This document shows positions 1 to 23,212 of a stretch of DNA of 64,000 nt, piece by piece. The position numbers were made by a program, and so were the translations under genes. The stretch's first letter is position 1. Each line of letters opens with the position of its first letter. Source of the stretch: a virus (lineage: Duplodnaviria > Caudoviricetes); the IMG/VR virus record IMGVR_UViG_3300046819_000361; one strand, given 5' to 3'. The notes beneath the pieces were generated by a model. It made no database searches, had not been told where the DNA came from, and worked only from the letters and a program-made list of their open reading frames with translations.

Positions 1-146
1 ACGATACATGGGAAGCTGATTATGATTTACAATTTGTTGACATAGTGAAAGCGGCTGTGTTATTATACAATCATGAGCTAATTGATTGGCTTCAATTACG
101 CGATATGTTACAGCAATTTGAAACTGATATTTAATGGAGTAGAAAG

Positions 147-569
147 ATGAGTATAGATTATAAAATAACCGTAATGATTCCATCTGATGTTGATCGTGTT
201 TTCAGTAGTGATGATGAGTTTAGAGAGGCGATTGCTCGAAGACTAACACACAGTACCGTTAGTGATATTTCATGTGGTAATATCATTGCTGAGTTTGATG
301 TACTTGCTTATGCTGAAACGGCAGAATTGGAATTAAACGAGTTAATGGAAGCATATCAAAGCAGTTATGACTTGCTGGTAGCGGATATTAAAAAGGTGTT
401 TTATGACATAGAAGAATTAGCGGCTTGTCATAATGTCAGTCGGATAAAACGAGTTTTATCAGGTATTGAAACAAGTCAAGCGTTTGTTACTTTCCTGATT
501 GACCAAACCGTAGCCTATGCTAATGAGCAAGCAAAAGCCAAAGGTGAATTTGATTACAATAACGATTGA
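147..569 (+). CDS. hypothetical early protein
   Basis: 140-aa ORF with GGAGTA RBS; TTGACA at 37-42 upstream; its TGA stop lies inside the next TTGACA. Confidence 0.75.
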   Translation: MSIDYKITVMIPSDVDRVFSSDDEFREAIARRLTHSTVSDISCGNIIAEFDVLAYAETAELELNELMEAYQSSYDLLVADIKKVFYDIEELAACHNVSRIKRVLSGIETSQAFVTFLIDQTVAYANEQAKAKGEFDYNND

Positions 570-623
570 CAGTGATTTGGGGTTATGTAATAATAACCCC
601 ATCTTAACGTGATGGAGCAGAAA

Positions 624-830
624 ATGAGTGAATTAAAAGAATATCAAGTAGTATGGCAAAATCAACCGCATTGCAATTATCCACGCAGAGTTGATTTTGT
701 AATGGCTGATAGTGAAGCCAATGCACGTAACGTGGTTACCGATCATATTAGACGAACTACTGGTCTGGTGATGACAACCATTCATAGTGTAGCATTATAT
801 GAAAAACCTACTGTTGGGTATGTAAAGTAG
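624..830 (+). CDS. hypothetical early protein
   Basis: ORF 609..830; start moved to ATG 624 after the GGAGCAG RBS. Confidence 0.7.
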   Translation: MSELKEYQVVWQNQPHCNYPRRVDFVMADSEANARNVVTDHIRRTTGLVMTTIHSVALYEKPTVGYVK

Positions 831-890
831 TTGACACTAGTTTGGGGTTATGTAATAATAGCCCCATCTTAACGTGATGGAGCAATCATA

Positions 891-1277
891 ATGATTATTA
901 AAACCACCGAATTGAGTGGGCTGGCGCTGGACTATGCTGTTGCCATGTGTGAATATCCACATCTGGTATACGGAGACACTATTGGATTGCACCATGCCTC
1001 GCACCAGCTTACTATCCCTGAATTTAAAGTGCCAGATTGTTTTTACAATCCATCAGTTAATTGGTCAGTGGGTGGTGTTATCGTTGAACGGGAACGTATC
1101 ACATTAGATGCACGGGAATCAGATTGGCAAGCTAGAATCTGGGATGATAGTATTGTTGATTTTATCGAAGTTGGCAAACGTGGTCCATACTGTAATACTG
1201 CATTAATAGCGGCTATGCGCTGTTATGTTACAAGTAAATTGGGTAATGAAGTTGAAATTCCTGATGAATTAGTTTGA
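891..1277 (+). CDS. phage NinX/DUF2591-like protein
   Basis: Motifs ELSGLALDYAVA, YNPSVNWSVGGVIVERERI, ALIAAMRCYVTSKLG..VEIPDEL. Confidence 0.7.
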   Translation: MIIKTTELSGLALDYAVAMCEYPHLVYGDTIGLHHASHQLTIPEFKVPDCFYNPSVNWSVGGVIVERERITLDARESDWQARIWDDSIVDFIEVGKRGPYCNTALIAAMRCYVTSKLGNEVEIPDELV

Positions 1278-1333
1278 CACCAGTTTGGGGTTATGTAATA
1301 ATAGTCCCATCTTAACACAGCGGAGCAAATGAA

Positions 1334-1561
1334 ATGACTGTAAGATTAGTAATTAGTATAGAATGCGGATCGGTTCAAGCGGTATATACCAACAACAAAG
1401 CTATCAAGGTTGATGTTGCAATCGTTGATTATGATTTTGAAGATGGTGATCTGGATGAAATTAAAACTGATGATTGTGGCAATGAGTACATTGGTAGACT
1501 TGAAACTACCTGCGAAGCGCAACCCTATGTAAATGAAGTATTTGAAAAACTATTAGCATAG
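1334..1561 (+). CDS. hypothetical early protein
   Basis: ORF preceded by module with GGAGCAAAT RBS. Confidence 0.7.
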   Translation: MTVRLVISIECGSVQAVYTNNKAIKVDVAIVDYDFEDGDLDEIKTDDCGNEYIGRLETTCEAQPYVNEVFEKLLA

Positions 1562-1619
1562 TTGACATTTAGTAAGAACCTAGTATAATAACCCAATATT
1601 AACACAGCGGAGCAAGGCG

Positions 1620-1880
1620 ATGATTGAAAGACAAATTGAGTTTAAAGAGTTATTGGAAATTTTAAATCAAGCTGAGGCTATTCAGTTCGATGGTTCATTG
1701 GTTTACCCAGCGGTATATGAAGATAAGTTTGAGGTCAGCCCATTAGATGATGATGAATCATTAATGATAGAAGCGGATGACATTGAAAATCTTTATATCA
1801 ATGATTACGGTAACATCGAATTTGAAATGGGTGATGATGTTTATATGATTTCAGTATTGGTTCGTAAAGAATTAGTTTGA
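1620..1880 (+). CDS. acidic hypothetical early protein
   Basis: ORF after TTGACA-16-TATAAT and GGAGCA RBS; D/E-rich. Confidence 0.7.
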   Translation: MIERQIEFKELLEILNQAEAIQFDGSLVYPAVYEDKFEVSPLDDDESLMIEADDIENLYINDYGNIEFEMGDDVYMISVLVRKELV

Positions 1881-2003
1881 CATTATTCTGGGGTTATGTA
1901 ATAATAATCCCATCTTTTAACTGGCCAACTAGGATGCGAGATGCATAAAATTAGAGATTCTACCGTAAATTAAACATAACCCCCAGTGCATAGAGGATTA
2001 AAG

Positions 2004-2033
2004 AAGATGGTAGCGATTCACTACCATCTTTTC
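2004..2033 (+). terminator. intrinsic terminator-like hairpin
   Basis: AAGATGGTAG-cgattca-CTACCATCTT followed by TT. Confidence 0.6.
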
Positions 2034-2114
2034 GAAAAAAGTAGTTGACACGATCAACCGGAGTGGTATAATGACCGCTCATTAACACACACTTAAACGG
2101 AAAAGGAAATAATT

Positions 2115-2303
2115 ATGTTAGTATTATCAAGAAAAGTTGGCGAAACTATTGTTATTGGTGATGATGTAACTGTAACGGTATTGGCGATCAATGGTGGACA
2201 AATTAAATTTGGTATTGCGGCACCGAAGGATGTATCGGTGCATAGACAGGAAATATATGAAAAGATTCAACGTGAAGGCGATTTGAGAGCAGAAAAGGTC
2301 TAG
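2115..2303 (+). CDS. csrA: carbon storage regulator CsrA/RsmA homologue
   Basis: [52 protein letters not shown] is a canonical CsrA sequence. Confidence 0.95.
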
Positions 2304-2361
2304 TTGACAAATCATTTCAGAGCCATTATTATGATGGCTCTATCAATTCATGGAGCGTATC

Positions 2362-3195: not shown

Positions 3196-3936
3196 TCAAA
3201 TAAGTTTATTGCTCTTTTTAAGATTGTCTATAGCCCACAGTGGTTGGAAATTTGTATAATGATTGAGTCGGATAAGGTCAGCTTCGTCAATTGCTGATGA
3301 CACTGGAATGATATGGTCTAAATGCCATTCAGCCCGATTTTCCCAAGACATACCCGATGCAAATTGTGCCTCAATATGAAGTTTGAAATCTTCATATGAA
3401 CATCCTAATATCTCGTGGGTTTTAGATTTTTTTGAATACCCGTTATTACGGAATGAACTACCAATTCGTGATCTTAAAGTTTTTCGTAGTTTAAATAATG
3501 GATCGGTTGAACAACGTACGGATTCTTTTTCAGATATGGTTTTACGATTTAGTTTAACACGTTGTCTTACTTTTTCTTTATTATTAGCATACCATACATT
3601 TGATTTATTACGGTAATGTTCTGAATTTAATTGACGATATTCTTTATCTCGAATAGATGTACACGATTTGCAGATTGATTTGAATCCATCTTTAGAATAG
3701 CTAGATTTATGAAAAGTATCGGTGGGCAGTACGTTATCACATTTTACACAATGCTTATATCCTACTTGTATTATAGATTCGCTTCTGTTATACTTTACAT
3801 CGTTATAGCGTCTATCACAGTTTTTACACATTGATCTAACACCATGTTTACCATATTTGTTTTTACTAAATTGGTCAATTGCTAAACTCTGATTACATTT
3901 TTTACAATGCTTGTGAATTGGTTGATAAATATCCAT
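3196..3936 (-). CDS. HNH homing endonuclease with N-terminal CxxC zinc-finger repeats
   Basis: WHLDHIIPV...NHYTNFQPLWAIDNLKKSN HNH core; two CxxC...CxxC units. Confidence 0.9.
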   Translation of the reverse strand: MDIYQPIHKHCKKCNQSLAIDQFSKNKYGKHGVRSMCKNCDRRYNDVKYNRSESIIQVGYKHCVKCDNVLPTDTFHKSSYSKDGFKSICKSCTSIRDKEYRQLNSEHYRNKSNVWYANNKEKVRQRVKLNRKTISEKESVRCSTDPLFKLRKTLRSRIGSSFRNNGYSKKSKTHEILGCSYEDFKLHIEAQFASGMSWENRAEWHLDHIIPVSSAIDEADLIRLNHYTNFQPLWAIDNLKKSNKLI

Positions 3937-5587: not shown

Positions 5588-5624
5588 ACTTGATAAGTAA
5601 GAAAATTGTAGTATAATGTAATTC

Positions 5625-5712
5625 ATCATGATAAGCCTCTTAACAATGCTCAAACCGATCATGATTAAAAAACCCTATCATGCCTCTTGACAATGCACAA
5701 ACTGATAGGGTT
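5625..5712 (+). ncRNA. candidate two-hairpin small RNA with near-identical 21-nt loop sequences
   Basis: Downstream of TTGATA-16-TATAAT (5590-5617); loop sequences GCCTCTTAACAATGCTCAAAC and GCCTCTTGACAATGCACAAAC are closed by different stems. Confidence 0.45.
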
Positions 5713-5778
5713 AAAATAAAGATTGACAATGTAGTAAAATGTAGTATAATAAATAACATATAAATTAGAGTGTTTTGT

Positions 5779-5852
5779 GGATCTATAATTTAAACGGAAA
5801 AAATACTCGACTCATAATCGATGAGATTTCGGATCATACCCGAATGGATCCA
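5779..5852 (+). tRNA. tRNA(CAU)-like element, Ile2/Met type, atypical
   Basis: Acceptor GGATCTA/TGGATCC, D-arm ATTT/AAAT with GG, anticodon arm TCGA-CTCATAA-TCGA, T-arm TTCGG-ATCATAC-CCGAA; no CCA; promoter TTGACA-16-TATAAT at 5723-5750. Confidence 0.65.
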
Positions 5853-5865
5853 CAAAACACTTTAA

Positions 5866-6036: not shown

Positions 6037-6801
6037 TTATCTAGTAATTCTTGATTGAATGAGTTTATCATACAATGGATGATTTAACGAATCTTCTGTT
6101 ATTGTATCACTTTTGATGATATTATCAATAGCCCATAATGGTCTTAAATTAGTATAATGATTTAACATTATTATTTCATGTTCCGATTGAGCAAACGCAA
6201 TTGGTATAATGTGGTCAATATGCCATTCACCATTAGTAGACCATGTCATGCCTTCTAAAAACTGCTTTTCAATATGTGTTTTAAACTCATCATAACTACA
6301 ACCTAATATCTCATAAGTTATAGATGTCTTTTTATATCCATTTCTAGTTATTGAACTCTTAATAAGAACTCTTATTCTTTTTCTTATTTGATATAACGTA
6401 TCAGTCAACATTCTTTCTTTATGACGAAGTGAGCGCTGTTTATTATACATATCTGTATTAGCTAATCTATATTGTTTTATCTTGTCTTTATTGGCAATAT
6501 AGTGTTCTTTTTTGTATTCTGCAATTTTGTCTTTATTGGCAATATAGTGTTCTTTTTTGTATTCTGCAATTTTGTTTTTATTAGATTGGTAATAAAGTTT
6601 ACTGTTGTCTTTATTAGTTTTATAATACAATTTACATGTTTCTTTTCTTTTTGAATGATTGGCTAAAACGTATTCTTTTGAACATGATTTGCATTGGTAT
6701 TTGTAACCATCTTTAGTATTTTTATCTTTATAAAAATTTTCTATTGACTTTGTAGTGTTGCATTTGTTACAATGCTTCTGATGTATTGGATAAATACCCA
6801 T
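6037..6801 (-). CDS. HNH homing endonuclease
   Basis: WHIDHIIPI...NHYTNLRPLWAIDNIIKSD; N-terminal CxxC; internal KIAEYKKEHYIAN duplication; paralog of 3196..3936. Confidence 0.9.
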   Translation of the reverse strand: MGIYPIHQKHCNKCNTTKSIENFYKDKNTKDGYKYQCKSCSKEYVLANHSKRKETCKLYYKTNKDNSKLYYQSNKNKIAEYKKEHYIANKDKIAEYKKEHYIANKDKIKQYRLANTDMYNKQRSLRHKERMLTDTLYQIRKRIRVLIKSSITRNGYKKTSITYEILGCSYDEFKTHIEKQFLEGMTWSTNGEWHIDHIIPIAFAQSEHEIIMLNHYTNLRPLWAIDNIIKSDTITEDSLNHPLYDKLIQSRITR

Positions 6802-6964
6802 GTGATGACCTCCTAGTCGTTACTGCCAATGGGTATTCCACTACCGCGATTGGCTTTTTTTGTGCTTTGTATTTATCTTTATGCTTGACAATAGTATGAA
6901 TTATTGATACTATACAACTCTTAAAAAATATTATTTTAATAGGCAACTGTAAAGGGAACTTTGA

Positions 6965-7756
6965 ATGAAAGATATAGAAACTGATGATCAAATAATTGAA
7001 CGACTACGAGTGAGATTTGAATGTCTCGAAGATATGACACGAGCAGTAAAAGGTGGTAAGGTCAGATCAATGATAGTATCTGGTAGTCCAGGTGTTGGCA
7101 AATCATTTGGTATTGAAAAAGTATTAGGGTATCATGATTTATTTGCAACTATTGCGAACGATCAATCATTGAAAAAATATGAAATCGTAAAAGGTGCAAT
7201 GTCACCATTAGGATTATATGTTAAATTACATCAATTCAAAAATGACAAAAATGTTCTAGTAATTGATGATTGTGATAATATCTATAGCGATGAACAATCA
7301 TTAAATTTATTAAAAACGTGTTTGGATACTGGAAAGAAACGAGTAGTAAGCTGGAATTATGATAGCTATAAATTGAAAGACGAAGGTGTACCAAATTCGT
7401 TTGAATTTAATGGCGGTATCATATTCATTACTAATGTTGATTTTGATCACGTTAAAAGTAGAAAGATAAAAAGCCATTTAAAAGCATTGGAAAGCAGATG
7501 TCATTTTATCAACTTAACTTGTCATTCCAATAGAGAAAAGTTATTGAGAATTAGACAAATTGTTAATGATGGGATGTTAGATGGTCATGGCATAGATAAT
7601 GAAAAAAAGCTTGACGTAGTTGATTTTATATGCGATAATCATACTGCATTACGAGAATTATCATTAAGAACTGTTATTAAAGCTGCTGATTTGGCTAGTT
7701 CTTTTCCAGATCGATGGAAGGACGTAGCTAAAATAACATTAATGAAAAGTCGTTAA
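6965..7756 (+). CDS. P-loop (AAA+-like) ATPase
   Basis: Walker A GSPGVGKS, Walker B VLVIDDCD, ALESR arginine-finger-like motif; own promoter TTGACA-17-TACTAT at 6885-6913. Confidence 0.8.
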   Translation: MKDIETDDQIIERLRVRFECLEDMTRAVKGGKVRSMIVSGSPGVGKSFGIEKVLGYHDLFATIANDQSLKKYEIVKGAMSPLGLYVKLHQFKNDKNVLVIDDCDNIYSDEQSLNLLKTCLDTGKKRVVSWNYDSYKLKDEGVPNSFEFNGGIIFITNVDFDHVKSRKIKSHLKALESRCHFINLTCHSNREKLLRIRQIVNDGMLDGHGIDNEKKLDVVDFICDNHTALRELSLRTVIKAADLASSFPDRWKDVAKITLMKSR

Positions 7757-7762
7757 AGATTC

Positions 7763-7955
7763 GCCAAATATTACCCATGCTCCGGTAATATTTGGCAATA
7801 CCCCTGCTCCTGACGCAACTGCTCCTGCGATCAGTTGAGCAACCCTAGGCATTCAATATTATATATCATTTGCTCCGGTAATTAATATTGAATCGCTACT
7901 ACCCCTCAACCCCTATTAGTATATCATTTGCTCCGGTATGCTAATAGGGGTTTTT
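7763..7955 (+). ncRNA. candidate four-hairpin RNA displaying UGCUCC (anti-GGAGCA) loops; last hairpin doubles as terminator
   Basis: Stems 7763-7796, 7805-7841, 7851-7893, 7908-7952 with loops CATGCTCC, ACTGCTCC, ATTTGCTCC, ATTTGCTCC; G-U pairs and terminal U-tract indicate + strand. Confidence 0.75.
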
Positions 7956-8016
7956 CTACTTGACAACCCAGATTGCTAGCTGTATCATGTACACATCATA
8001 ACGCGGAGTATTAAGT

Positions 8017-8247
8017 ATGTTAACATTTAATCTAAATGGCAATATCTTGGAAGTCATCGAAACTACTATGACATTCCATCAAGACTTGAAATCATATTGG
8101 TATTATGATCTAGTGAGCTGGCGCAAATCAAGCACTGGTAGACAAGGTGCGATGATCGACCGCGATATTGAGCCTTGGCAGATTGAATGGATTAAAAAAC
8201 ATTATTATTCAAAAGTCGGGTTGACATCAGATTTGGGTGCTGTATAA
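8017..8247 (+). CDS. hypothetical early protein
   Basis: Module promoter at 7960, GGAGTA RBS. Confidence 0.65.
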   Translation: MLTFNLNGNILEVIETTMTFHQDLKSYWYYDLVSWRKSSTGRQGAMIDRDIEPWQIEWIKKHYYSKVGLTSDLGAV

Positions 8248-8274
8248 TACAACCATCTTAAGAAGGAGCGAAGT

Positions 8275-8451
8275 ATGAACACTTACACAGTTATCTTATC
8301 TTATCACAATGGCAAACGTTCGTTTGTTGATAAGATTTTTAAAAACATCACGGCTGATAACCTTATTCAAGCTGGTGAATTGGCATTAGCCAATTGGAAT
8401 AAACCGGATGCAGTTATCAATATGTGCTGGCTCAACTGGAGTAAAGCATGA
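8275..8451 (+). CDS. small early protein (not in ORF track)
   Basis: 58 aa MNTYTVILSYHNGKRSF...; promoter at 8221, AGGAGCG RBS. Confidence 0.6.
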   Translation: MNTYTVILSYHNGKRSFVDKIFKNITADNLIQAGELALANWNKPDAVINMCWLNWSKA

Positions 8452-8651
8452 CATACCAACAACCAGCATTAGGTACATTAAATGCACGGTTAACCCCAGC
8501 AGATAAACCTACTGTTATCGTTAAAATGTTTAAGTTCGATAGCATTAGACAGGAAGCCTACTGGGTTACACAATACGTTAAACAGTTCAAGACCATTGAA
8601 CAAGCCAATAATTATATAAATCGAGTGATGGAGCAAAAAAATGATTTATAA
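8448..8651 (+). CDS. hypothetical early protein
   Basis: ATGA overlap with upstream ORF; GGAG RBS. Confidence 0.6.
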   Translation: MTYQQPALGTLNARLTPADKPTVIVKMFKFDSIRQEAYWVTQYVKQFKTIEQANNYINRVMEQKNDL

Positions 8652-8817
8652 AGACTTATTAAACCAACTTAACCAAATGTCGCAAGAAGACTTAAATAAA
8701 CCTGTGACTGTTCTTTTAGTTGAGGCTGGAGAGTTTTTGGGTGCATGGGGTGATCTTGTATATTCAGATGAATCTGACACATTAGAAGTCGGCACACCCT
8801 ATTTAATGATTGATTAA
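8641..8817 (+). CDS. small early protein (not in ORF track)
   Basis: 58 aa MIYKDLLNQLNQMSQEDLNKPVTV...; GGAGCAAA RBS. Confidence 0.6.
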   Translation: MIYKDLLNQLNQMSQEDLNKPVTVLLVEAGEFLGAWGDLVYSDESDTLEVGTPYLMID

Positions 8818-8828
8818 AGGAATAAAAC

Positions 8829-9074
8829 ATGAAACAGGAATATAGAGATTTATTAGCAAGAATTCAACGTCCAGCAATCAAAGCTGAATTAATCGCATAT
8901 GCTAGACAAGTAATCGAGAATGATGGTAACCTAACAGACGATTGGTTTTCATTCAATGATTGGATTGACATTAACGTATTTGATAACATCAATGCTACTG
9001 CTTACCCAGTAATATTAGGTGAACCATCAACAGAAAAAGGTATAAAGTTAATTGTTGACAATATAGACCAATAA
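8829..9074 (+). CDS. hypothetical early protein
   Basis: AAGGA RBS, 81 aa. Confidence 0.65.
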   Translation: MKQEYRDLLARIQRPAIKAELIAYARQVIENDGNLTDDWFSFNDWIDINVFDNINATAYPVILGEPSTEKGIKLIVDNIDQ

Positions 9075-9108
9075 CAGTATTATACAGTTTTTATCTGGAG
9101 CATAACCT

Positions 9109-9417
9109 ATGAAATACGAAACAATTAAAACCAAAATGAAAATTCATATTGATAATCAATTTGAACAACACGGCTTTGATCTTTCAACCCATGCTATTAG
9201 ATTATTTCTTGATAGAAAACCATTAGATTACTACAAAAAGAAAAAATACGCTAAAGAAGCGTGTTTTGAAATCATTGACAATTGGGATGTTCGCGCGGTA
9301 CCATCACTGTTCACAATGTTTCCAACCGTTTACCCATCAATGGTAGGAAAACCATTAGTCATCACCTATGATGAAAATGGTGAATGGGTAGTAGAAAAAG
9401 CAAAACAAACAGCTTGA
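9109..9417 (+). CDS. hypothetical early protein
   Basis: Promoter at 9055, GGAGCAT RBS. Confidence 0.7.
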   Translation: MKYETIKTKMKIHIDNQFEQHGFDLSTHAIRLFLDRKPLDYYKKKKYAKEACFEIIDNWDVRAVPSLFTMFPTVYPSMVGKPLVITYDENGEWVVEKAKQTA

Positions 9418-9473
9418 CATTGATTTGGGGTTATGTAATAATAGCCCCATCTTAACTCGATGGAGCAAAAATC

Positions 9474-9833
9474 ATGAAAGTATTCGTATATTTCAACCTA
9501 CACAAAAAATTGTTTAGTATCAAAGCAATGGAAGGTGAAAACAAAGGTAAGGTGATCGGTCACTCACCAGTGGTATTATTGGATGATGTAACCTTTAAAG
9601 TATCCGAAGCAGGTAGACAGCGTGTTATCAGAGAACGCAAAAAGAATGTTCATGCAGGTGTAATGGGACACCTTAACGCACAAGGCATAAGATTAGTAAT
9701 TGCGACCCGTGATCTAACAACCAAAGTAACTTATAACCCATACAAATATCAATCATTCGTTGAGGTTGAAACATCTGAGCCGGTATTGACTGCTAACAAT
9801 GCATTGTTAGTGAACAAACGAATTTATATTTGA
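9474..9833 (+). CDS. conserved phage hypothetical protein
   Basis: VYFNLHKKLFS...VSEAGRQRV..ERKKNVHAGV.G...VTYNPYK pattern resembles a widespread phage family. Confidence 0.75.
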   Translation: MKVFVYFNLHKKLFSIKAMEGENKGKVIGHSPVVLLDDVTFKVSEAGRQRVIRERKKNVHAGVMGHLNAQGIRLVIATRDLTTKVTYNPYKYQSFVEVETSEPVLTANNALLVNKRIYI

Positions 9834-9893
9834 TTGACATCATGCTGGGGTTATGTAATAATAACCCCATCTTAACACAGCGGAGCAAACGCA

Positions 9894-10103
9894 ATGACAC
9901 CAGAACAAACAAAACGTTTATTACAAGGGGCATCATTCCTATCGATTGAAGGTGAATTTTATCGAATAGACCTTTGTGATGAAACCGAATTTTATTACAC
10001 TGATGAAGACAGTGGTGAACAATATTGTGATACCTATGATAAGATTGATTTGTATAACCCAGAAGTTGAGATATACAAACTTGAAAAAATAAACATTAAG
10101 TAA
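9894..10103 (+). CDS. acidic hypothetical early protein
   Basis: Module promoter plus GGAGCAAA RBS. Confidence 0.7.
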   Translation: MTPEQTKRLLQGASFLSIEGEFYRIDLCDETEFYYTDEDSGEQYCDTYDKIDLYNPEVEIYKLEKINIK

Positions 10104-10162
10104 TTGACACCAGTTTGGGGTTATGTAATAATAACCCCATCTTAACATGATGGAGCAAAGCA

Positions 10163-10711
10163 ATGAACAAATACCATGTCAACCTGCAAGAAAAATTAGA
10201 TGATGAGTTTTTAGATAAAATGTGGTTTGAATGTGATGCTGATAATGCAGAACACGCCAAAGAACAAGCCACCAATGCTTATCCTGATTGCAAAATCAAT
10301 GCAGTTCAAACCAGTATCACATGGACAGAATTCGAGGAAAGATTCAAACCAATCAAGAACCATTTAGATGATAATGCCTCATTCGATGGTTATATGTTTG
10401 AAACATTTGATTCTGAGCTTGATGCAGTCAAACAGGCATATAGTGTCAATCGTGATACTGTTTGGACGGTTATGTGTGATTCAGGTAATGTCGATGTTTC
10501 TAGTGGGTTTTACTTTTGTAATCGTCTAGGTTACATTATCACAGAGATACCAGCAGATTGCACCATTGATGTTATCAATGACGATTATAACGAAATTACA
10601 GAGTTCTACGATTACGAATGTCCATCATGTAATAGTTACATCAATGGTGACCCAAAAGTTGGTGATTCATGCTCGTGTGGCTTTGTATTCACAATGGAAG
10701 ATTACGATTAG
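10163..10711 (+). CDS. hypothetical early protein with C-terminal Zn ribbon
   Basis: Module promoter plus RBS; CPSC...CSCG. Confidence 0.75.
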   Translation: MNKYHVNLQEKLDDEFLDKMWFECDADNAEHAKEQATNAYPDCKINAVQTSITWTEFEERFKPIKNHLDDNASFDGYMFETFDSELDAVKQAYSVNRDTVWTVMCDSGNVDVSSGFYFCNRLGYIITEIPADCTIDVINDDYNEITEFYDYECPSCNSYINGDPKVGDSCSCGFVFTMEDYD

Positions 10712-10774
10712 TAGTTGACAGCATTTTGGGGTTATGTAATAATAACCCCATCTTAACACAGCGGAGAAAATACA

Positions 10775-10912
10775 ATGTCAGAAAAAATGATTGAATATCT
10801 AATTGAATTAGCTAAAAACAACGATGATTCAGAAACACTTGATGACTATGCACAAGGTCAAGTTGATTTAGCTAAACATATCTTGTATGATATGGATATT
10901 GAAGTCGAATAA
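10775..10912 (+). CDS. small early protein (not in ORF track)
   Basis: 45 aa between modules 10715 and 10917; GGAGAA RBS. Confidence 0.55.
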   Translation: MSEKMIEYLIELAKNNDDSETLDDYAQGQVDLAKHILYDMDIEVE

Positions 10913-10976
10913 GCACTTGACAGCATTCTGGGGTTATGTAATAATAGCCCCATCTTAACACACCGGAGCGAACACC

Positions 10977-11141
10977 ATGACACCTATTACAATTGAACAA
11001 AAACGTGATGCAGTTATCAACGACACATTCGATACTTGTTTAAATGATAGTGGTTATTTATTATCAGTTATTCAGGATTTGTACCGTGATAAATCCGATG
11101 AAGAAATCGAACGAGCTTATAACGATGCTTTCGATTTTTAA
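10977..11141 (+). CDS. small early protein (not in ORF track)
   Basis: 54 aa between modules 10917 and 11142. Confidence 0.6.
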   Translation: MTPITIEQKRDAVINDTFDTCLNDSGYLLSVIQDLYRDKSDEEIERAYNDAFDF

Positions 11142-11199
11142 TTGACATAAACAATGGGCTATGAAATAATAACCCCATCTTAACACAACGGAGCAAACC

Positions 11200-11364
11200 A
11201 TGACATCTTACAAAGTAACTTATACCATTGACGTTGATGCTGAAAGTGCATTAGATGCAGCATTGGAAGTTGAAGAATACTTAAAAAACCCATCCAGCAG
11301 ACCTTACTTAACAGTATCATCATCAACTGAAACTGTTGATATTGATTTAGAAGATCTAGTCTAG
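11200..11364 (+). CDS. small early protein (not in ORF track)
   Basis: 54 aa MTSYKVTYTIDVDAESALDAA... between modules 11142 and 11365. Confidence 0.6.
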   Translation: MTSYKVTYTIDVDAESALDAALEVEEYLKNPSSRPYLTVSSSTETVDIDLEDLV

Positions 11365-11426
11365 TTGACAAATCATTAATGAGCCATTATAATGATGGCT
11401 CTTTTCAAACATTCGGAGCAAACGAT

Positions 11427-11972
11427 ATGCCAAATTGGTGTCAAAACACAGTAACATTCACCCACAACGATGCTACACAATTAAACAGATTGGTGGAAGC
11501 TGGTAATTCAGGAAAGCTATTTAATGAGTTCGTACCAGTGCCTAAAGCATTGTTCAAGATCATCAATACCAGACTTGGCGATAAACGCAGATTTAGACGG
11601 TCATTACGCATTACAACCCGTAATGAAAAGAAGTATAGCTATGCTAGTGCTTATTACTTTTGCAAAGCAAATTGGGGTACAAAGTGGGATGCTGATTGCT
11701 TCACGTTATATGATAGCGGTGTAGGTCATGTCAGAGTCGGATTTAATACCGCTAATACACCACCAATTGAATTCTATAATCAAATGGTTGAGCTTGGCTT
11801 TGGTGTCGATGCCTTTTATTATGAAGGTGGCAATTGCTATTGTGGTGAGTATTGTGATGGCTCATACACTGATTACGAATGGGATGACCTAGAATCAGCT
11901 AAAGCTAACATTCCCGACTATATCGATGAAGAATTCGCCATTACCGAGAACATGGAAGAATACGAAGAATAG
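11427..11972 (+). CDS. DUF1281/YubB-like ferredoxin-fold phage protein
   Basis: MPNWCQN start after GGAGCAAA; NWGTKWD, F.TANTPP, YYEGG..YCG motifs. Confidence 0.7.
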   Translation: MPNWCQNTVTFTHNDATQLNRLVEAGNSGKLFNEFVPVPKALFKIINTRLGDKRRFRRSLRITTRNEKKYSYASAYYFCKANWGTKWDADCFTLYDSGVGHVRVGFNTANTPPIEFYNQMVELGFGVDAFYYEGGNCYCGEYCDGSYTDYEWDDLESAKANIPDYIDEEFAITENMEEYEE

Positions 11973-12034
11973 TTGACAATTACATCAAGAGCCATTATAA
12001 TGATGGCTCTTTTAACGCATCTGGAGCAAATCAA

Positions 12035-12235
12035 ATGGCTAGAATTGAAATCGAATACCAGTATAACGAATCAGCACCTAATGAGCAAGTCGCGGAAGAA
12101 CGCAATGACCATGCGATTGAACGTATTGCAAACGCTTTAGAAATGGGGCTTGTTCAAGGCGAATTGAATTATTATGATTCTGATTCTGACATTGATTATC
12201 ATGGTTGGTATTCAATAGTTCACTTCGTCGATTAG
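12035..12235 (+). CDS. hypothetical early protein
   Basis: Module plus GGAGCAAAT RBS. Confidence 0.7.
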   Translation: MARIEIEYQYNESAPNEQVAEERNDHAIERIANALEMGLVQGELNYYDSDSDIDYHGWYSIVHFVD

Positions 12236-12293
12236 ACTTGATAGGCACATAATGCTAGCTGTATTGTGTGCCATTACTCATGCAGGTAAACAC

Positions 12294-12476
12294 ATGGCAA
12301 CTATACTAGCAGTTATTCTAATTTTAGCAATCCTTTGGCTAGTGCTGGAAATATCAATCATTCTAATGATTGGCTTATTCATTGTGGCAGCGTTTGGTAG
12401 TCATACCGAAGCTGGCAATCTAATTGGTTTTATTGGCTTGATAATCGCTGGTTATGCAATGGTAGGCGAAGCATGA
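12294..12476 (+). CDS. small membrane protein
   Basis: Two hydrophobic segments; AGGT RBS before ATG 12294. Confidence 0.55.
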   Translation: MATILAVILILAILWLVLEISIILMIGLFIVAAFGSHTEAGNLIGFIGLIIAGYAMVGEA

Positions 12477-12715
12477 AATATGATGATTTATACACCAACG
12501 CAAAGAATACCAAACCAGTTTATAACATCAAAAAACATATTGTAGTTGATTCTAAAGTGGTTTATAATACAGGCAAACCACCATACGAAACCACGGTTAT
12601 ATTTTATGTAATGGCGGCTTTTATTTTACTATGTGCATTGCATAACGCAATATCAATAGTATTAACAATTTACAATGGTATTTTAGATTTATTTGGAGCA
12701 GATGATGACTATTGA
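12473..12715 (+). CDS. hypothetical membrane protein
   Basis: ATGA overlap; one hydrophobic segment. Confidence 0.55.
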   Translation: MKYDDLYTNAKNTKPVYNIKKHIVVDSKVVYNTGKPPYETTVIFYVMAAFILLCALHNAISIVLTIYNGILDLFGADDDY

Positions 12716-12893
12716 TGATGTAATACAAGCAAAAACAAATCTAGGTAAGGTTATCAATTCCTTGGAAAACTTCAACCATATAGCCGAGATTGATGTACAA
12801 TTAGGAATCCCGACCAAAGTTAAACTGTTTGAGTTATATCGCCTATGTCAAGAATTCAGTGTTGAATTCGAGCGAATCGTACCAGATGAATAA
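12702..12893 (+). CDS. hypothetical early protein
   Basis: GGAGCAG RBS before ATG 12702. Confidence 0.6.
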   Translation: MMTIDDVIQAKTNLGKVINSLENFNHIAEIDVQLGIPTKVKLFELYRLCQEFSVEFERIVPDE

Positions 12894-12953
12894 AAGTTGA
12901 CAAGCAGTAATGCTAGCTGTATCATAGGCACAAATCAACATTGGAGCATATCA

Positions 12954-13103
12954 ATGCCAAATGGAAAAACAGCACGATATATTGTAAAAGTATGGGATGG
13001 TTATACTAATAGTTCCTTTGAAAGAATCGCTACTTATGATTATTTGGCTAATGTGTGCCGTGCTTATCCACCAAGTTATATTTGGAGCATAGAACCAGCT
13101 TGA
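12954..13103 (+). CDS. small early protein
   Basis: Start moved to the ATG after GGAGCAT; TGA stop inside the next TTGACA. Confidence 0.6.
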   Translation: MPNGKTARYIVKVWDGYTNSSFERIATYDYLANVCRAYPPSYIWSIEPA

Positions 13104-13155
13104 CAAGCAATAATGCTAGCTGTATCATAGGCACACATCAACACCGGAGCATCAC

Positions 13156-13392
13156 ATGTCAATAACAGAATTAAGAAAAGAGTTGAAAGCCATTGGTTTT
13201 AAAGTTAAACTGACCAGCATGAGTTGGGGCAGAGCCGCAACCTATACTGATATGGACGGCAACCAACGACCAATGATATTTTTTTGTGATGAAAAGATAA
13301 AAGCATGGCGGCCATTAACTCATTACATAAACGACAACCATGAAAGATTACGATCATTGGCTAATAGTGAAAAAATCACTGGCTTAATTTAG
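13156..13392 (+). CDS. hypothetical early protein
   Basis: Module plus ACCGGAGCAT RBS. Confidence 0.7.
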   Translation: MSITELRKELKAIGFKVKLTSMSWGRAATYTDMDGNQRPMIFFCDEKIKAWRPLTHYINDNHERLRSLANSEKITGLI

Positions 13393-13401
13393 GAGCGAAT
13401 T

Positions 13402-13725
13402 ATGTTATATGCATTTAGAATAGTTCAAGAAGACAACACCATTTCACATCATGGCATGGTTACAGCGAATTCCAATTATGATTTGTTTTGGATGATTGAT
13501 CAGTTTGTTGATCCTTATGCAGTAGAAGTTAAGAAGATCACCGGATTAACTGGTTTTTGTTCTCGCACACAGGAATTGATTGACGATGATGGTGATATGA
13601 CAACCCCTATCCCACACGAAGAAGGCGCAGATCTTGAATTCGCGGAGGAATTCACTAACACAATTAGTGAGTCAGATGGATGGTACAGACCAAAATGGAC
13701 TAAAAAACAAATAATTGGTTATTGA
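13402..13725 (+). CDS. hypothetical early protein
   Basis: AGGAGCG RBS. Confidence 0.7.
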   Translation: MLYAFRIVQEDNTISHHGMVTANSNYDLFWMIDQFVDPYAVEVKKITGLTGFCSRTQELIDDDGDMTTPIPHEEGADLEFAEEFTNTISESDGWYRPKWTKKQIIGY

Positions 13726-14136
13726 CACTGCCCTGCCCTACTGCGATAATAAACCACCTTAACAAACCGGAGCAAAAACAATGTATGACCGTTATTTGAT
13801 TTATGTGGCACAAGCCGAGGCATTAGGATGGTATGTTTTACCTTTCGATGAGTGGCTAAACAGTTAAAAAAGATTTGACAGGTTTAACATGAGTCGCTAT
13901 TATAGTGGCTCATTCAAACAACACCGGAGCAAATCAAATGAAAAAATTTAAACTGGATGGTTTAACAGGATACATTGACCAAAACAATTTTATTCGCTGG
14001 TCTACTATCAGTTGCCATTTTGACTCATTAGCTGATTGTCCGCTAAAAAAAGCAGCAGCTAAAGCAAAATAAAGTTTGACAATAGTTTAGGATGGTGCGA
14101 GAATAGCACCATCTTAACAAATTGATGGAGCAAATC

Positions 14137-14397
14137 ATGGGAATGTATAAAGATAAAACTGGTGTTGTTGGCGAGTTTCAAGAGAAAGAATTCAAACAGC
14201 ATTTTGAATTCAAACAGACTGAGCCGGATTCTTGGGGGGATTTATTTGGTTTCCCATACCGTGTAGCAGTCGGCCCACTAGGGGAAACCAGATATGCAAA
14301 AATTTCAAAAACTGTTGCTTATGTGGTTGTCGATCAAGATGATAATGGTGATCCAGTTTTAGAAAAATGGCAAATCAAACTACTTTGGAAAAAATAG
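14137..14397 (+). CDS. hypothetical early protein
   Basis: Start moved to the ATG after GGAGCAAAT. Confidence 0.7.
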   Translation: MGMYKDKTGVVGEFQEKEFKQHFEFKQTEPDSWGDLFGFPYRVAVGPLGETRYAKISKTVAYVVVDQDDNGDPVLEKWQIKLLWKK

Positions 14398-14459
14398 TTT
14401 GACAATCGCTTAAAGAGCCGTTAATATAGCGGCTCATTCAAACATTACCGGAGCAAGTC

Positions 14460-14885
14460 ATGGATAGAATAATCAACCACTTTCAAGCTGATTTCAAACA
14501 AGTTTTCCCTAATAGTCCAACTGGTGTGACTAATTCAGTTTTTGGACTATCAACCAGATTTATTAGCTTTACACTAGCACAAAAAAAGGATTATCCAAAC
14601 GGCATTATTAACAATGATCCGTTGCATACATCATTTAGTTTAACAGTAAATGCTGATGGTTCATATACTGTTGAACATACACAAGGTGCTTTATATGTCA
14701 ACCCACGAGAACGATTCATTGCCATGAGTTCTATCAAGACCAGATTAACTAAAAAAACTGGCAATGAAGATCAGGTAATAAAGCACTTGACAAAATGGAT
14801 TAACAAAGTAAAATCTATCGTCGTAGAAAATAAGAATGACATTTACGGTGGTTTGGAAAAATACCAAAAATACATCGTCGAATAA
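14460..14885 (+). CDS. hypothetical early protein
   Basis: Module plus ACCGGAGCAA RBS. Confidence 0.75.
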   Translation: MDRIINHFQADFKQVFPNSPTGVTNSVFGLSTRFISFTLAQKKDYPNGIINNDPLHTSFSLTVNADGSYTVEHTQGALYVNPRERFIAMSSIKTRLTKKTGNEDQVIKHLTKWINKVKSIVVENKNDIYGGLEKYQKYIVE

Positions 14886-14951
14886 AACTTGACAATAGTT
14901 TAAAGAGCCGTTAATATAGCGGCTCAATCAAACAATAATGGAGCAATAAAA

Positions 14952-15263
14952 ATGAACACAGTTTATACCAATGGTTATTATGGTCATAAAATGGAAACAA
15001 AAATTGACCTAGATAATAGCAGATTAGTTACCATTTCAACTATGAAAAGAAGTAGCGGGTTATTAGTAACCTTTGCCAGTGTCGGTACTAGAAACGGTGA
15101 TTTTATTAGTAGCATCATGTTTCAAGATTTTACTAAAAATCTTGCGTCACAAAAAATTCGTGTAACTGAAAAAGCAGTTAGACTACAACACCAACAAGCC
15201 TTGGACGGTATCGAATCGCTATTGGCTGAGATTGAAGACTTTTACAGTAAAGAAACAGCATAA
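14952..15263 (+). CDS. hypothetical early protein
   Basis: Module plus GGAGCAA RBS. Confidence 0.75.
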   Translation: MNTVYTNGYYGHKMETKIDLDNSRLVTISTMKRSSGLLVTFASVGTRNGDFISSIMFQDFTKNLASQKIRVTEKAVRLQHQQALDGIESLLAEIEDFYSKETA

Positions 15264-15330
15264 AAAGCTTGACAGGTGCAATTATAGTGAATTATAATTG
15301 CACCATCTTAACAACACCGGAGCAAAAACC

Positions 15331-15651
15331 ATGTCGGTATCAGAGCAAAACATTCAAGATTATTTAACCCATATCGGCAACAAATACGCTGAGTTCCATG
15401 ATCGCATGGGCTTCACTTCCGAAGCAAACCGAGTTCAAAAATTCCGTGATTATTTGCGTACCACCGATGGCAAATCATACATCAAAGTAATTAAGGAAGG
15501 ATCGGTTCACAGTTTCATCGTAAAAGCCGATAATGGCAAATTCAAAGCCGGTGACGTGCTAAAAGCCGCCAGCTTTAACGCACCAGCTAAAAACTTCAAG
15601 CGTGGTAATGTGGTCACCGGTGATCTGGATAACATCGATTGGTCAATGTAA
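15331..15651 (+). CDS. conserved phage hypothetical protein
   Basis: SVHSFI...GDVLKAASFNAPAKN..RGNV motif; start after ACCGGAGCAAA. Confidence 0.75.
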   Translation: MSVSEQNIQDYLTHIGNKYAEFHDRMGFTSEANRVQKFRDYLRTTDGKSYIKVIKEGSVHSFIVKADNGKFKAGDVLKAASFNAPAKNFKRGNVVTGDLDNIDWSM

Positions 15652-15719
15652 AAAAAGACTTGACAGGTGCATGATGCTAGCTGTATCATGCACCTTTCTT
15701 ACATGACGGAGCAAATAAT

Positions 15720-15992
15720 ATGTGGTGGTGTACTTCATCAGGTGGCATTGAGTTAAACATTACTTTAAACAATGCAAAAAAATGCTTTCACTCAGGTGAT
15801 TGTGAATTGGATGTAATCGAGTTATCCAAAAAAGCATCAATCAAAAAACAAACCAAATTGATTGATAAAGAGCTATTAATTAAAGAGTTATCCGAGTATG
15901 GTGCATGGAATAACGAAGAGTTACAAGACCACGAACAAAATATAATTAGATTGTTATGGCTTGCCACTGCTGATATAGCAGAAAATAATTAA
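15720..15992 (+). CDS. hypothetical early protein
   Basis: Module plus GGAGCAAAT RBS. Confidence 0.7.
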   Translation: MWWCTSSGGIELNITLNNAKKCFHSGDCELDVIELSKKASIKKQTKLIDKELLIKELSEYGAWNNEELQDHEQNIIRLLWLATADIAENN

Positions 15993-16056
15993 TCACTTGA
16001 CAGGTGCATGATGCTAGCTGTATCATGTGCCTTTCTTAACATGATGGAGCAAAACA

Positions 16057-16371
16057 ATGGTTGATTTAATCGCAAAAACCGGACACGTTTGGGTAAAATG
16101 CAAAAAATGCGATTGCGATTTTCAAGCTAGAATAGCTGATCGCAATCGTGGCTGGGGGAAGTTTTGTTCAAAATCATGTAAAGCTAAAGAGCAGGAAAAC
16201 CGCACTGGCCAATATCGTGCATACGCATCAAGACAGGTTCAAAAAATCAACGGCAGTACAATCAGCCGTGAATTAGCTAAAAAATCTAAAGACCTAGTTG
16301 AAGTTTATGATGATGGCAGTTTTACTTATATCAATCATTTTGGTGGCTGGGATGACCATAAATTTGATTGA
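16057..16371 (+). CDS. zinc-finger early protein
   Basis: CKKC...RGWGKFCSKSCKA. Confidence 0.7.
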   Translation: MVDLIAKTGHVWVKCKKCDCDFQARIADRNRGWGKFCSKSCKAKEQENRTGQYRAYASRQVQKINGSTISRELAKKSKDLVEVYDDGSFTYINHFGGWDDHKFD

Positions 16372-16428
16372 CAGATTAAATAATAGCCGCTAATATAGCC
16401 GCTCTTTTAACAACACCGGAGTAAAAAA

Positions 16429-16734
16429 ATGGCATTAACACCATTAACCGAACGCCAAAAAACCTTGATCGTGAACAACGTGGTGAAGGCTGTTAAGGAT
16501 ATTACAAAGCTTAACAAAACAGGATATAACTTCCTATATCTTGCCAGTGGTTTTATCGCCTATCATAACCTGTATGGATTTATCGAGCATTTTAAAGATT
16601 ATGACTTAAAGCGCGATATTTTGGCCAACCATCGCCAAAACCAATGGCTTAATTTTCGCCTAGGCGATAATGATTATGACTATTACAAGTCAAAAGCCGA
16701 TGTTTATAATCGTATTGTGGAAGCGATAAAATAA
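16429..16734 (+). CDS. hypothetical early protein
   Basis: Module plus ACCGGAGTA RBS. Confidence 0.7.
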   Translation: MALTPLTERQKTLIVNNVVKAVKDITKLNKTGYNFLYLASGFIAYHNLYGFIEHFKDYDLKRDILANHRQNQWLNFRLGDNDYDYYKSKADVYNRIVEAIK

Positions 16735-17243
16735 TTTGACACGAGCGGCTAATTTGGATTATATTAGCCGCTCTTTTAACAACACCGGAGCAAAAAAATG
16801 GATGCCCACGTTAAAGCCTTTTATGATGATATAGAGGCAAATTATGACGAGATTCAAGCAAAAGCTATGCGGGAAGCCGAAGACCGCTGGCTTGATGCTG
16901 GATGCCCTAGTAACGGGTTCGATGAGTTTGGCGATTAAATAATTTGACACGAGCGGCTAATTTGGATTATATTAGCCGCTCATTCATTCACACATTACCA
17001 TAAAGAGGTTTTATGTCTATAACACGGGGCGACTTGTTAGATAAAGGCGGGATTGAAGTTTCTAACTCATGGGATATTATCCTAGACGGTGTACGATGGA
17101 TTGAAAAACCATCCGATAATGGCAATGGTTGGTATGCAGGTTCGTCGGATAATACCGACAACCTAATTTACATCAAGGCTTGATTTTAAAATAAGAGCGG
17201 TTTATAATAGCCGCTCTTTTAACAACAACACCGGAGCAAAATC

Positions 17244-17432
17244 ATGATTGAAATAAAAAAAGGCGTTTCAAAAACGACCTTCCCTATCGATAAAATCGCG
17301 GCGGTAGCGCTACAATTAGCTGGTGGCGGCTATACAGTCGCACAAACAGCTAAAGCTATGGAAATCCAAGCTGATTTGAAAGCTGGAAAAACTGTAAAAG
17401 CCAAAGGCTTTACAGTTAAAATTATCGATTGA
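17244..17432 (+). CDS. small early protein
   Basis: Module plus ACCGGAGCAAA RBS. Confidence 0.65.
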   Translation: MIEIKKGVSKTTFPIDKIAAVALQLAGGGYTVAQTAKAMEIQADLKAGKTVKAKGFTVKIID

Positions 17433-17488
17433 TTTTAAAATAAGAGCGGTTTATAATAGCCGCTCTTTTAATAAAACCGGAGCAAACC

Positions 17489-22254: not shown

Positions 22255-22626
22255 TTATGTCCTATTAATTGGTTTAGCGCCAATAATTTGTTGTGGTACT
22301 TGAGCCTGTTGTCTTAATTTCAAGTCATCTTCACGAGCGTTTGGATTTTTTGAAATAGTTGGTGCAATAGCTTGCCAACCTTTTTGTGTCATTAGTTGTG
22401 CTTGTAATCTGCCATTTCTAAAAGAAGGTCGTGTTAAATCTTCATCGGCTGACACTGGATCATGTGGGTTTGCAAGTTGATAATTTAGACCGGCTTTATG
22501 TCCTGGGCAATTTGGGTCATTCTGGTCAACACAGGGGTGCATATCGTTTGGTCCTTTAGGAGGTTTAGGACCGTAACGAAAGAATGAGCCGTTGCCGATT
22601 GATTCTGTAATTTCTTTAATTTTCAT
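22255..22626 (-). CDS. hypothetical protein with MKIKEITE N-terminus
   Basis: 123-aa ORF coupled to the kinase gene. Confidence 0.65.
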   Translation of the reverse strand: MKIKEITESIGNGSFFRYGPKPPKGPNDMHPCVDQNDPNCPGHKAGLNYQLANPHDPVSADEDLTRPSFRNGRLQAQLMTQKGWQAIAPTISKNPNAREDDLKLRQQAQVPQQIIGAKPINRT

Positions 22627-23212
22627 AAGTAGCTCCGACGATTGGATCTAGGATAACTGGGGTATTGTTACGTAATAGGACGTTACCTTTATGTAGGTCC
22701 AACACGGGTTGAGATGGTAATTTATCCATATCGTCAATAATTTCAAAAATACCTGGATAGTGTTGCAGTAGGAATTCTTTTTGGTCAGTTGTTAATTCAC
22801 GTGCGTAGAATAGTGGTTTAATAACTGCCATTAGATCTGAAAGATTCTTACCGACAATTGGTTCTAATTTTTCCAATCTAATCACGAATGTATTTTTATT
22901 GATTCTAATGATAGGCCCGGTAGTTTTTGGTACATTTGGATTAGACTGATGCAATCTAATATATTTAATATACTGTAGAAATGCTGGATCGTGAGTAAAG
23001 ATTTTTAAAACCCAGGGATAAGTTGGGTGAATATAAGCTGAACCGTAGGATCCGGTACCCAGGTGTTTAAATCCGTTATCCAACATATATTTTTGAAACT
23101 GTTCCAATTTATCAATACGGGGGTTAAAAGCGCTCAAATCACCTTGAAATGTTTGAGATGCTTGTTGGAAATGTGGATGGCTTTTATATCCGGTTAATTC
23201 TTTAATTTTCAT
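22616..23212 (-). CDS. Ser/Thr protein kinase, T7 gp0.7-like
   Basis: LGTGSYGSAY glycine loop, VLKI lysine, DLHKGN catalytic loop, ILDP; GATAAATA late motif just upstream. Confidence 0.75.
   Translation of the reverse strand: MKIKELTGYKSHPHFQQASQTFQGDLSAFNPRIDKLEQFQKYMLDNGFKHLGTGSYGSAYIHPTYPWVLKIFTHDPAFLQYIKYIRLHQSNPNVPKTTGPIIRINKNTFVIRLEKLEPIVGKNLSDLMAVIKPLFYARELTTDQKEFLLQHYPGIFEIIDDMDKLPSQPVLDLHKGNVLLRNNTPVILDPIVGATYEN

Follow-up and report, generated by a model that had tools for sequence, protein, structure and literature searches.

The window, a stretch of 64,000 nucleotides, belongs to the genome of a T4-like jumbo phage with genes for helicase, primase, UvsX, SSB, terminase and tail sheath, an uncultured giant phage from freshwater. 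Among cultured phages the closest terminases are RaK2-like (about 42%), and relatives with the same gene order reach up to 355 kb. From 147 to about 19900 the plus strand carries an array of small genes, most of which have their own TTGACA-type promoter cassette. Directly 3' of an AAA+ ATPase gene, a row of four hairpins occupies positions 7763-7955:

6885-6913, plus strand: sigma70-type promoter 5' of the ATPase gene, TTGACA-17-TACTAT, 10/12 match with TG
6965-7756, plus strand: AAA+ ATPase gene, T4 NrdC.10 family (phrog_1250), 263 amino acids
7763-7796, plus strand: hairpin 1, 13-bp stem, loop CAUGCUCC at 7776-7783
7805-7841, plus strand: hairpin 2, bulged stem, loop ACUGCUCC at 7818-7825
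7851-7893, plus strand: hairpin 3, loop AUUUGCUCC at 7868-7876, one U-G pair beside the closing pair
7908-7955, plus strand: hairpin 4, an intrinsic terminator, loop AUUUGCUCC at 7926-7934, two U-G pairs, followed by a U-tract

UGCUCC forms the end of all four loops. On the plus strand the element folds at -77.8 kcal/mol, whereas shuffled sequences average -41.2 (z -8.4), and the hexamers in the loops (7778, 7820, 7871 and 7929) have an unpaired probability of about 1.0, which bears out the four hairpins with a shared loop end that a sequence-only reading had described at these positions. A fifth TGCTCC, at 7805, is buried in stem 2; the hexamer is otherwise absent from the plus strand of 1-22200, and at least four copies within 204 nt correspond to a Poisson P of 1e-7. 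Rfam models gave no credible match for the hairpin element. C-rich single-stranded linkers (CCUCCC-like) lie between the hairpins at 7797-7804 and 7897-7907, as well as 3' of the ATPase stop at four other loci (L016, L069, L071 and L073); these linkers of the window clade could read ordinary Shine-Dalgarno sequences (SDs), host SDs included.

The ATPase has conserved Walker A/B and SRC motifs and an AAA+ fold, and fold searches return AAA+ proteins without singling out a specific family. Its best relative in GTDB bins (76%) is found in a Methylococcaceae bin, a weak hint to the host because the other GTDB-bin matches fall in unrelated bins. Long forms of the ATPase (for instance L200, 7557-7772) carry a confidently folded N-terminal beta barrel that is weakly SH3/KOW-like (best Z 5.0), and this barrel is missing from the window's ATPase and its clade. 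An intact phage csrA (2115-2303, plus strand; Pfam 92.5 bits) is found near the ATPase in the window clade only, and two HNH/endonuclease VII-like genes on the minus strand oppose the early array (3196-3936 and 6037-6801).

Further RNAs are encoded upstream of the ATPase gene. At 5627-5710 on the plus strand, two abiF RNA motifs in tandem (Rfam RF03085) score 43.6 bits (cut-off 37) and 32 bits; they have their own promoter at 5590-5617, and no adjacent abiF protein gene was recognised. This abiF-like RNA is covered by RNA-library contigs; it is conserved in L020, where it scores 47.1 bits, and to some extent in L012. RCd22, which also has two abiF motifs, neutralises the AbiF toxin in trans (PMC12373285), and by analogy the window's RNA may be a phage antitoxin mimic directed against AbiF defence. 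A tRNA with a CAU anticodon (5765-5865, plus strand; ARAGORN; Rfam 50.1 bits) has an odd T-loop and an acceptor stem prolonged by many further base pairs.

What does the loop motif face? Its complement, GGAGYR, occurs in 33 of the 54 leaders of the early region and in 0 of 44 other leaders, with a Fisher p of 5e-12 that is too small because the promoter cassettes are partly duplicates. Exact GGAGCA is present in 25 early leaders, so that the earlier count of about 30 early ribosome-binding sites (RBSs) complementary to UGCUCC was a fair one. The tagged leaders lie on both sides of the element:

136-2361, plus strand: six early leaders with the tag, upstream of the element, of the genes at 147, 624, 891, 1334, 1620 and 2362
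8005-17488, plus strand: 27 tagged early leaders beyond the terminator, most with their own sigma70-type cassette, predicted trans targets

The tag is placed 4-9 nt before the ATG, also in genes without their own promoter (7/23), and about 15-20 bp downstream of early promoters. The RBS variants listed in the sequence-only reading are present, with one position to be corrected from 12694 to 12695, and the 12 nt of perfect loop-leader complementarity that it noted at 13923 are real. It had also remarked that the ATPase and csrA RBSs are free of GGAGC, and both leaders (of the genes at 6965 and 2115) are indeed untagged. The GGAG core is used without the extension by 12 of the 44 non-early leaders, indicating that the tag is an added address and not a requirement of the host ribosome. 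We rejected the idea that a variant anti-SD in the host gave rise to the tag, as non-early genes have ordinary SDs (GGAGGT, AGGAGA).

We collected ATPase loci from viral and metagenome contigs, which gave 162 distinct 3' regions. In most of these, the stop codon is directly followed by one to five hairpins that share their loop but not their stems, which are unrelated, and three loop-leader dialects can be told apart. The window clade (dialect A) combines (U)UGCUCC loops with GGAGCA leaders and has the most loops, up to four or five; a large clade (dialect G) combines UUCGCUCC loops (AUUCGCUCC) with GGAGCGAA leaders; and a third (dialect H), which includes the complete 357-kb genome G009, combines GCCCUC loops (UGCCCU) with GAGGGC(A) leaders. 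Across the three dialects, loop and leader agree at 80 of the 82 loci where both can be classified, in line with the expectation, voiced in advance, that the loops would be conserved in relatives and change together with the leader tag. Related loci share labels, so the evidence amounts to a few independent changes and not to 80: the ATPase tree supports at least three concordant loop-tag changes, in the window clade (100/100), in the GCCCUC clade (85/43) and in L099. In dialect G the match extends to the two bases after the tag (A84 A66 in the targets, A97 A92 in the loop complement). Dialects A and G are one base apart, and U-G wobble blurs the distinction between them; a duplex-energy matrix between dialects is partly circular and serves as description only.

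One of the two exceptions is spurious, since the "H loop" of L138 falls in coding sequence; the leaders of this relative (G010) uniformly carry the tag GGAGAAAC, and a loop to match it was not found near the ATPase. Discordance is seen in L085, with a G loop and A leaders, and in L329, with GCCCUC loops and mostly GAGGAGCA leaders, and it is partial in L321, where two of three loops read CCGCUCC and the leaders GGAGCA. More distant relatives (46-48%) place CCUCUC-type motifs opposite AGAGAGG and GAGGAGAGA leaders, and L334 and L335 provide further matching loop-leader pairs.

Of the 281 motif copies behind the ATPase or a wHTH gene, 234 are located in a stem-loop, compared with 101 of 585 copies elsewhere, and many pair types are present in the stems of related elements. 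Where other genes follow the ATPase, the loop sits behind a 90-aa winged-helix (wHTH) gene that has its own promoter and an untagged leader (no tag in 12 of the 13 loci shown), and four phages have loops behind both genes. In G003, 10 of 13 GGAGCG-ATG sites fall inside one 8-kb array. Two lone minus-strand genes outside the early array, L313 1511-1954 (G002) and L314 1295-1576 (G003), have an RBS that is perfectly complementary to the G-dialect loop over 11 nt and are possible special targets. In the early array of G009 (L315, L316) and in L194, many leaders contain one copy of AGGGCA where the transcript starts and another at the RBS, and such doubling could engage two loops simultaneously. 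An exact 16-mer scan of viral contigs returned 42 matches and no hairpin clusters. Among cultured phages, RB69, phi-Grn1, S13 and PA5oct have no such loops behind their ATPase, and RDJL Phi 1 has one CCCUCC loop at this place.

On balance, the element is a plus-strand RNA ending at the terminator, a reading that rests on U-tracts, isolated G-U pairs and the missing antisense promoter. Of 95 loci, 91 have a U-tract after the last loop on the plus strand and 25 on the minus strand, and isolated stem mismatches are G-U in 65 and A-C in 37 cases (p 0.007); the count of all mismatches, which is confounded by shared internal loops, has no plus-strand bias (118 G-U, 146 A-C). An antisense sigma70 match of at least 10/12 is present in 3 of 95 loci and an antisense late-type motif in 7 of 95. 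These family-level tests uphold the strand assignment of the sequence-only reading, although the three G-U pairs in stems 3 and 4 to which it had appealed are by themselves no proof. Folding energy prefers the minus strand in dialect G and is otherwise uninformative about the strand. One metatranscriptome contig, which carries no strand, end or level information, spans 7753 to about 7880; its variant T7791C in stem 1 makes an A-C mismatch on the plus strand and a G-U pair on the minus strand.

We consider the conserved RNA element real, with comparative evidence for pairing to early-gene leaders, and we infer that its loops probably pair with these leaders in trans and repress their translation. 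The covariation of loop and tag lends support to the core of the earlier proposal, namely a plus-strand RNA whose loops pair with early-gene RBSs. The element would be the structured 3' end of an early transcript, either the ATPase mRNA itself or a stable fragment cut from it, and the promoter at 6885-6913 is its probable source. Its four single-stranded loops would face a phage-private SD extension (GGAG plus CA) on most early mRNAs and pair in trans with the short A/C-rich leaders over 6-9 bp, or up to 12-13 bp if a stem opens. A loop paired in this way would block 30S binding and perhaps promote decay. A loop pairing of 6-8 bp is short, and no helper protein was found. In the window clade, the ATPase leader itself pairs with the loops over 4.6 bp on average, versus 7.0 for other leaders; this weak pairing with the own leader, together with the location of most targets past the terminator, favours trans action there. 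A kinase resembling T7 gp0.7 (phrog_15752) is encoded at 22616-23212 on the minus strand; T7 gp0.7 modulates RNase III and RNase E, and by analogy the window's kinase could affect RNA duplex turnover.

When would such an RNA act? A sigma70 match of at least 10/12 lies within 450 nt upstream of the ATPase match in 126 of 149 related loci, whereas a conserved internal promoter and a conserved late TAAATA were not found in the 3' end of the ATPase gene (1 of 95 loci each), which points to an RNA that is co-expressed with its targets. As its promoter is of the same class as theirs and strong stems would protect it, the RNA is expected to accumulate, and its build-up would exert a delayed negative feedback on early translation. 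The early-to-late switch of the sequence-only reading is therefore disfavoured, an early-type promoter fitting a feedback timer better than a late-triggered switch. Nor is its silencing of the early genes en masse supported, with 21 of the 54 early-region genes untagged; untagged genes, among them ATPase, csrA, replication and virion genes, would escape.

Could the 3' loops instead fold onto tagged leaders of their own transcript, at the ATPase RBS or in genes read through from upstream, and limit that mRNA alone? Such pairing has a precedent in icaR (PMC3868564), and it is possible in the G and H clades, where the ATPase leader is usually tagged and pairs with its own loops over 6.5-6.6 bp, and where most tagged genes lie upstream of the element (in dialect G, 346 up and 76 down). 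In the window, however, the ATPase leader pairs over at most 4 bp and there is no stable 5'-3' fold, 27 of the 33 tagged genes lie beyond the terminator, and the loop-carrying wHTH gene of relatives is itself mostly untagged, so that action purely in cis seems quite improbable; in other clades it may supplement trans action. Covariation supports pairing and does not tell the sign of its effect, and the pairing might be real and serve nuclease protection, the guiding of a phage or host enzyme (an RNase or the ATPase), or a storage tether. The tight linkage of the element to an AAA+ ATPase, the weakly SH3/KOW-like barrel of the long forms and the second tag copy that G009 leaders often have away from the SD would suit such a role. 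Yet in most leaders the tag overlaps the SD core, so that loop binding leaves no room for the 16S tail, the barrel is missing from the window's ATPase, and loops are also present behind the wHTH gene; we think an outcome other than simple repression unlikely.

Two further explanations dispense with the plus-strand RNA. A minus-strand RNA with GGAGCA loops might be a CsrB/RsmZ-like decoy for a leader-binding protein, for example the phage CsrA, and indeed the minus strand of the element folds well too (z -4.95), CsrA is encoded near the ATPase in the window clade, minus-strand energies are lower in dialect G, and T7791C gives a G-U pair on this strand. Such a decoy is nevertheless very unlikely: ANGGA lies inside none of the four minus-strand loops, where GGAG starts each loop and ACC precedes three of four, and is found in only 13 of the 33 tagged leaders; GGA is missing from the H tag; eight element-bearing records of other dialects, one of them a complete genome, yielded no CsrA; and antisense promoters and U-tracts are scarce as given above, with the terminator facing the plus strand. 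Alternatively, the tag could be a DNA operator, for instance for the wHTH protein, and the hairpins cruciform or single-stranded DNA sites for the same protein, in keeping with the conserved wHTH gene that is often linked to the element and with the spacing of the tag from early promoters. We regard this as extremely improbable, given that the motif is always inverted relative to the leaders and lies in loops, that of the terminator included, that a G-U bias is present, that the tag keeps its fixed distance from the ATG even where a gene has no promoter of its own, and that no wHTH gene was found in the window.

Translational repression of early genes in trans by the plus-strand RNA thus remains our preferred reading, and its closest analogues appear to be the cuckoo/CcsR RNAs, the P1 C4 RNA and T4 RegB. 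As in anti-SD sRNAs that act in trans, the exposed sequence is complementary to the target RBSs, conserved and covarying. Cuckoo or CcsR sRNAs (RSs0680, alpha-r14, NfeR1) belong to Alphaproteobacteria (PMC4615179, PMC8034643) and resemble the phage element in that two to four neighbouring hairpins vary in their stems and repeat a single anti-SD motif in their loops; CcsR RNAs arise by cleavage within the 3' UTR of a protein gene (PMC8034643, PMC4615179), and the phage element also lies 3' of a protein gene. In contrast to the cuckoo loop CCUCCUCCC, the phage loops read UGCUCC, CGCUCC or GCCCUC, and the element resides in a lytic phage, where it matches and covaries with the private tag that this phage's early genes carry. 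It also has no Rfam match and no DUF1127 neighbour (CIN1 subgroup), its neighbour being an AAA+ ATPase or wHTH gene. In P1 and P7, loops of the C4 antisense RNA pair near the RBS of a phage mRNA and block translation, with a specificity that varies between phages (PMC12197685). C4, however, controls one antirepressor operon in a temperate phage (PMC12197685), whereas the element described here matches about 30 leaders and is a simple hairpin row with its own terminator; the element has no Rfam match to the C4 models, and its complementary sites are early-gene RBSs, not a linked icd/ant target.

The T4 endoribonuclease RegB and repressor RegA apparently do the same job as the proposed system, inactivating early mRNAs as a class by way of a GGAG-type SD signal while late mRNAs escape (PMC3014915, PMC1702504), but the reader is a protein in T4 and would be an RNA here. 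RegB and RegA profiles had no match in five records each, in searches run without a positive control. In S. aureus, the icaR 3' UTR (PMC3868564) and the UCCC loops of RNAIII (cited in PMC4615179) likewise pair with an SD and block initiation; icaR acts on its own mRNA, whereas the carrier leader here pairs poorly and the matches are other genes. The targets themselves, lying in repeated promoter-stem-loop-SD cassettes, recall the PeSL early cassettes of T4-type phages, in a paper that describes no antisense RNA (PMC2839356). A description of the hairpin element was not found in the literature searched, which left subscription journals outside.

In conclusion, we see roughly even chances that many uncultured T4-like jumbo phages time early expression by a programmable RNA code: a multivalent RNA carried by a terminator would read, in trans, a private RBS tag of a temporal class. 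Such a code would be the RNA-only counterpart of T4 RegB/RegA and would have been re-coded several times in evolution. What is known of early shut-off in lytic phages dependent on the host's RNA polymerase comes mainly from T4, in which proteins carry it out. If the proposed reading is true, an RNA would take on this task for an entire gene class in an aquatic phage group that is very common. The loop-tag dialects are ready-made compensatory pairs, the tag makes the early regulon recognisable in uncultured genomes, and loop-tag pairs could become orthogonal parts for translation control.
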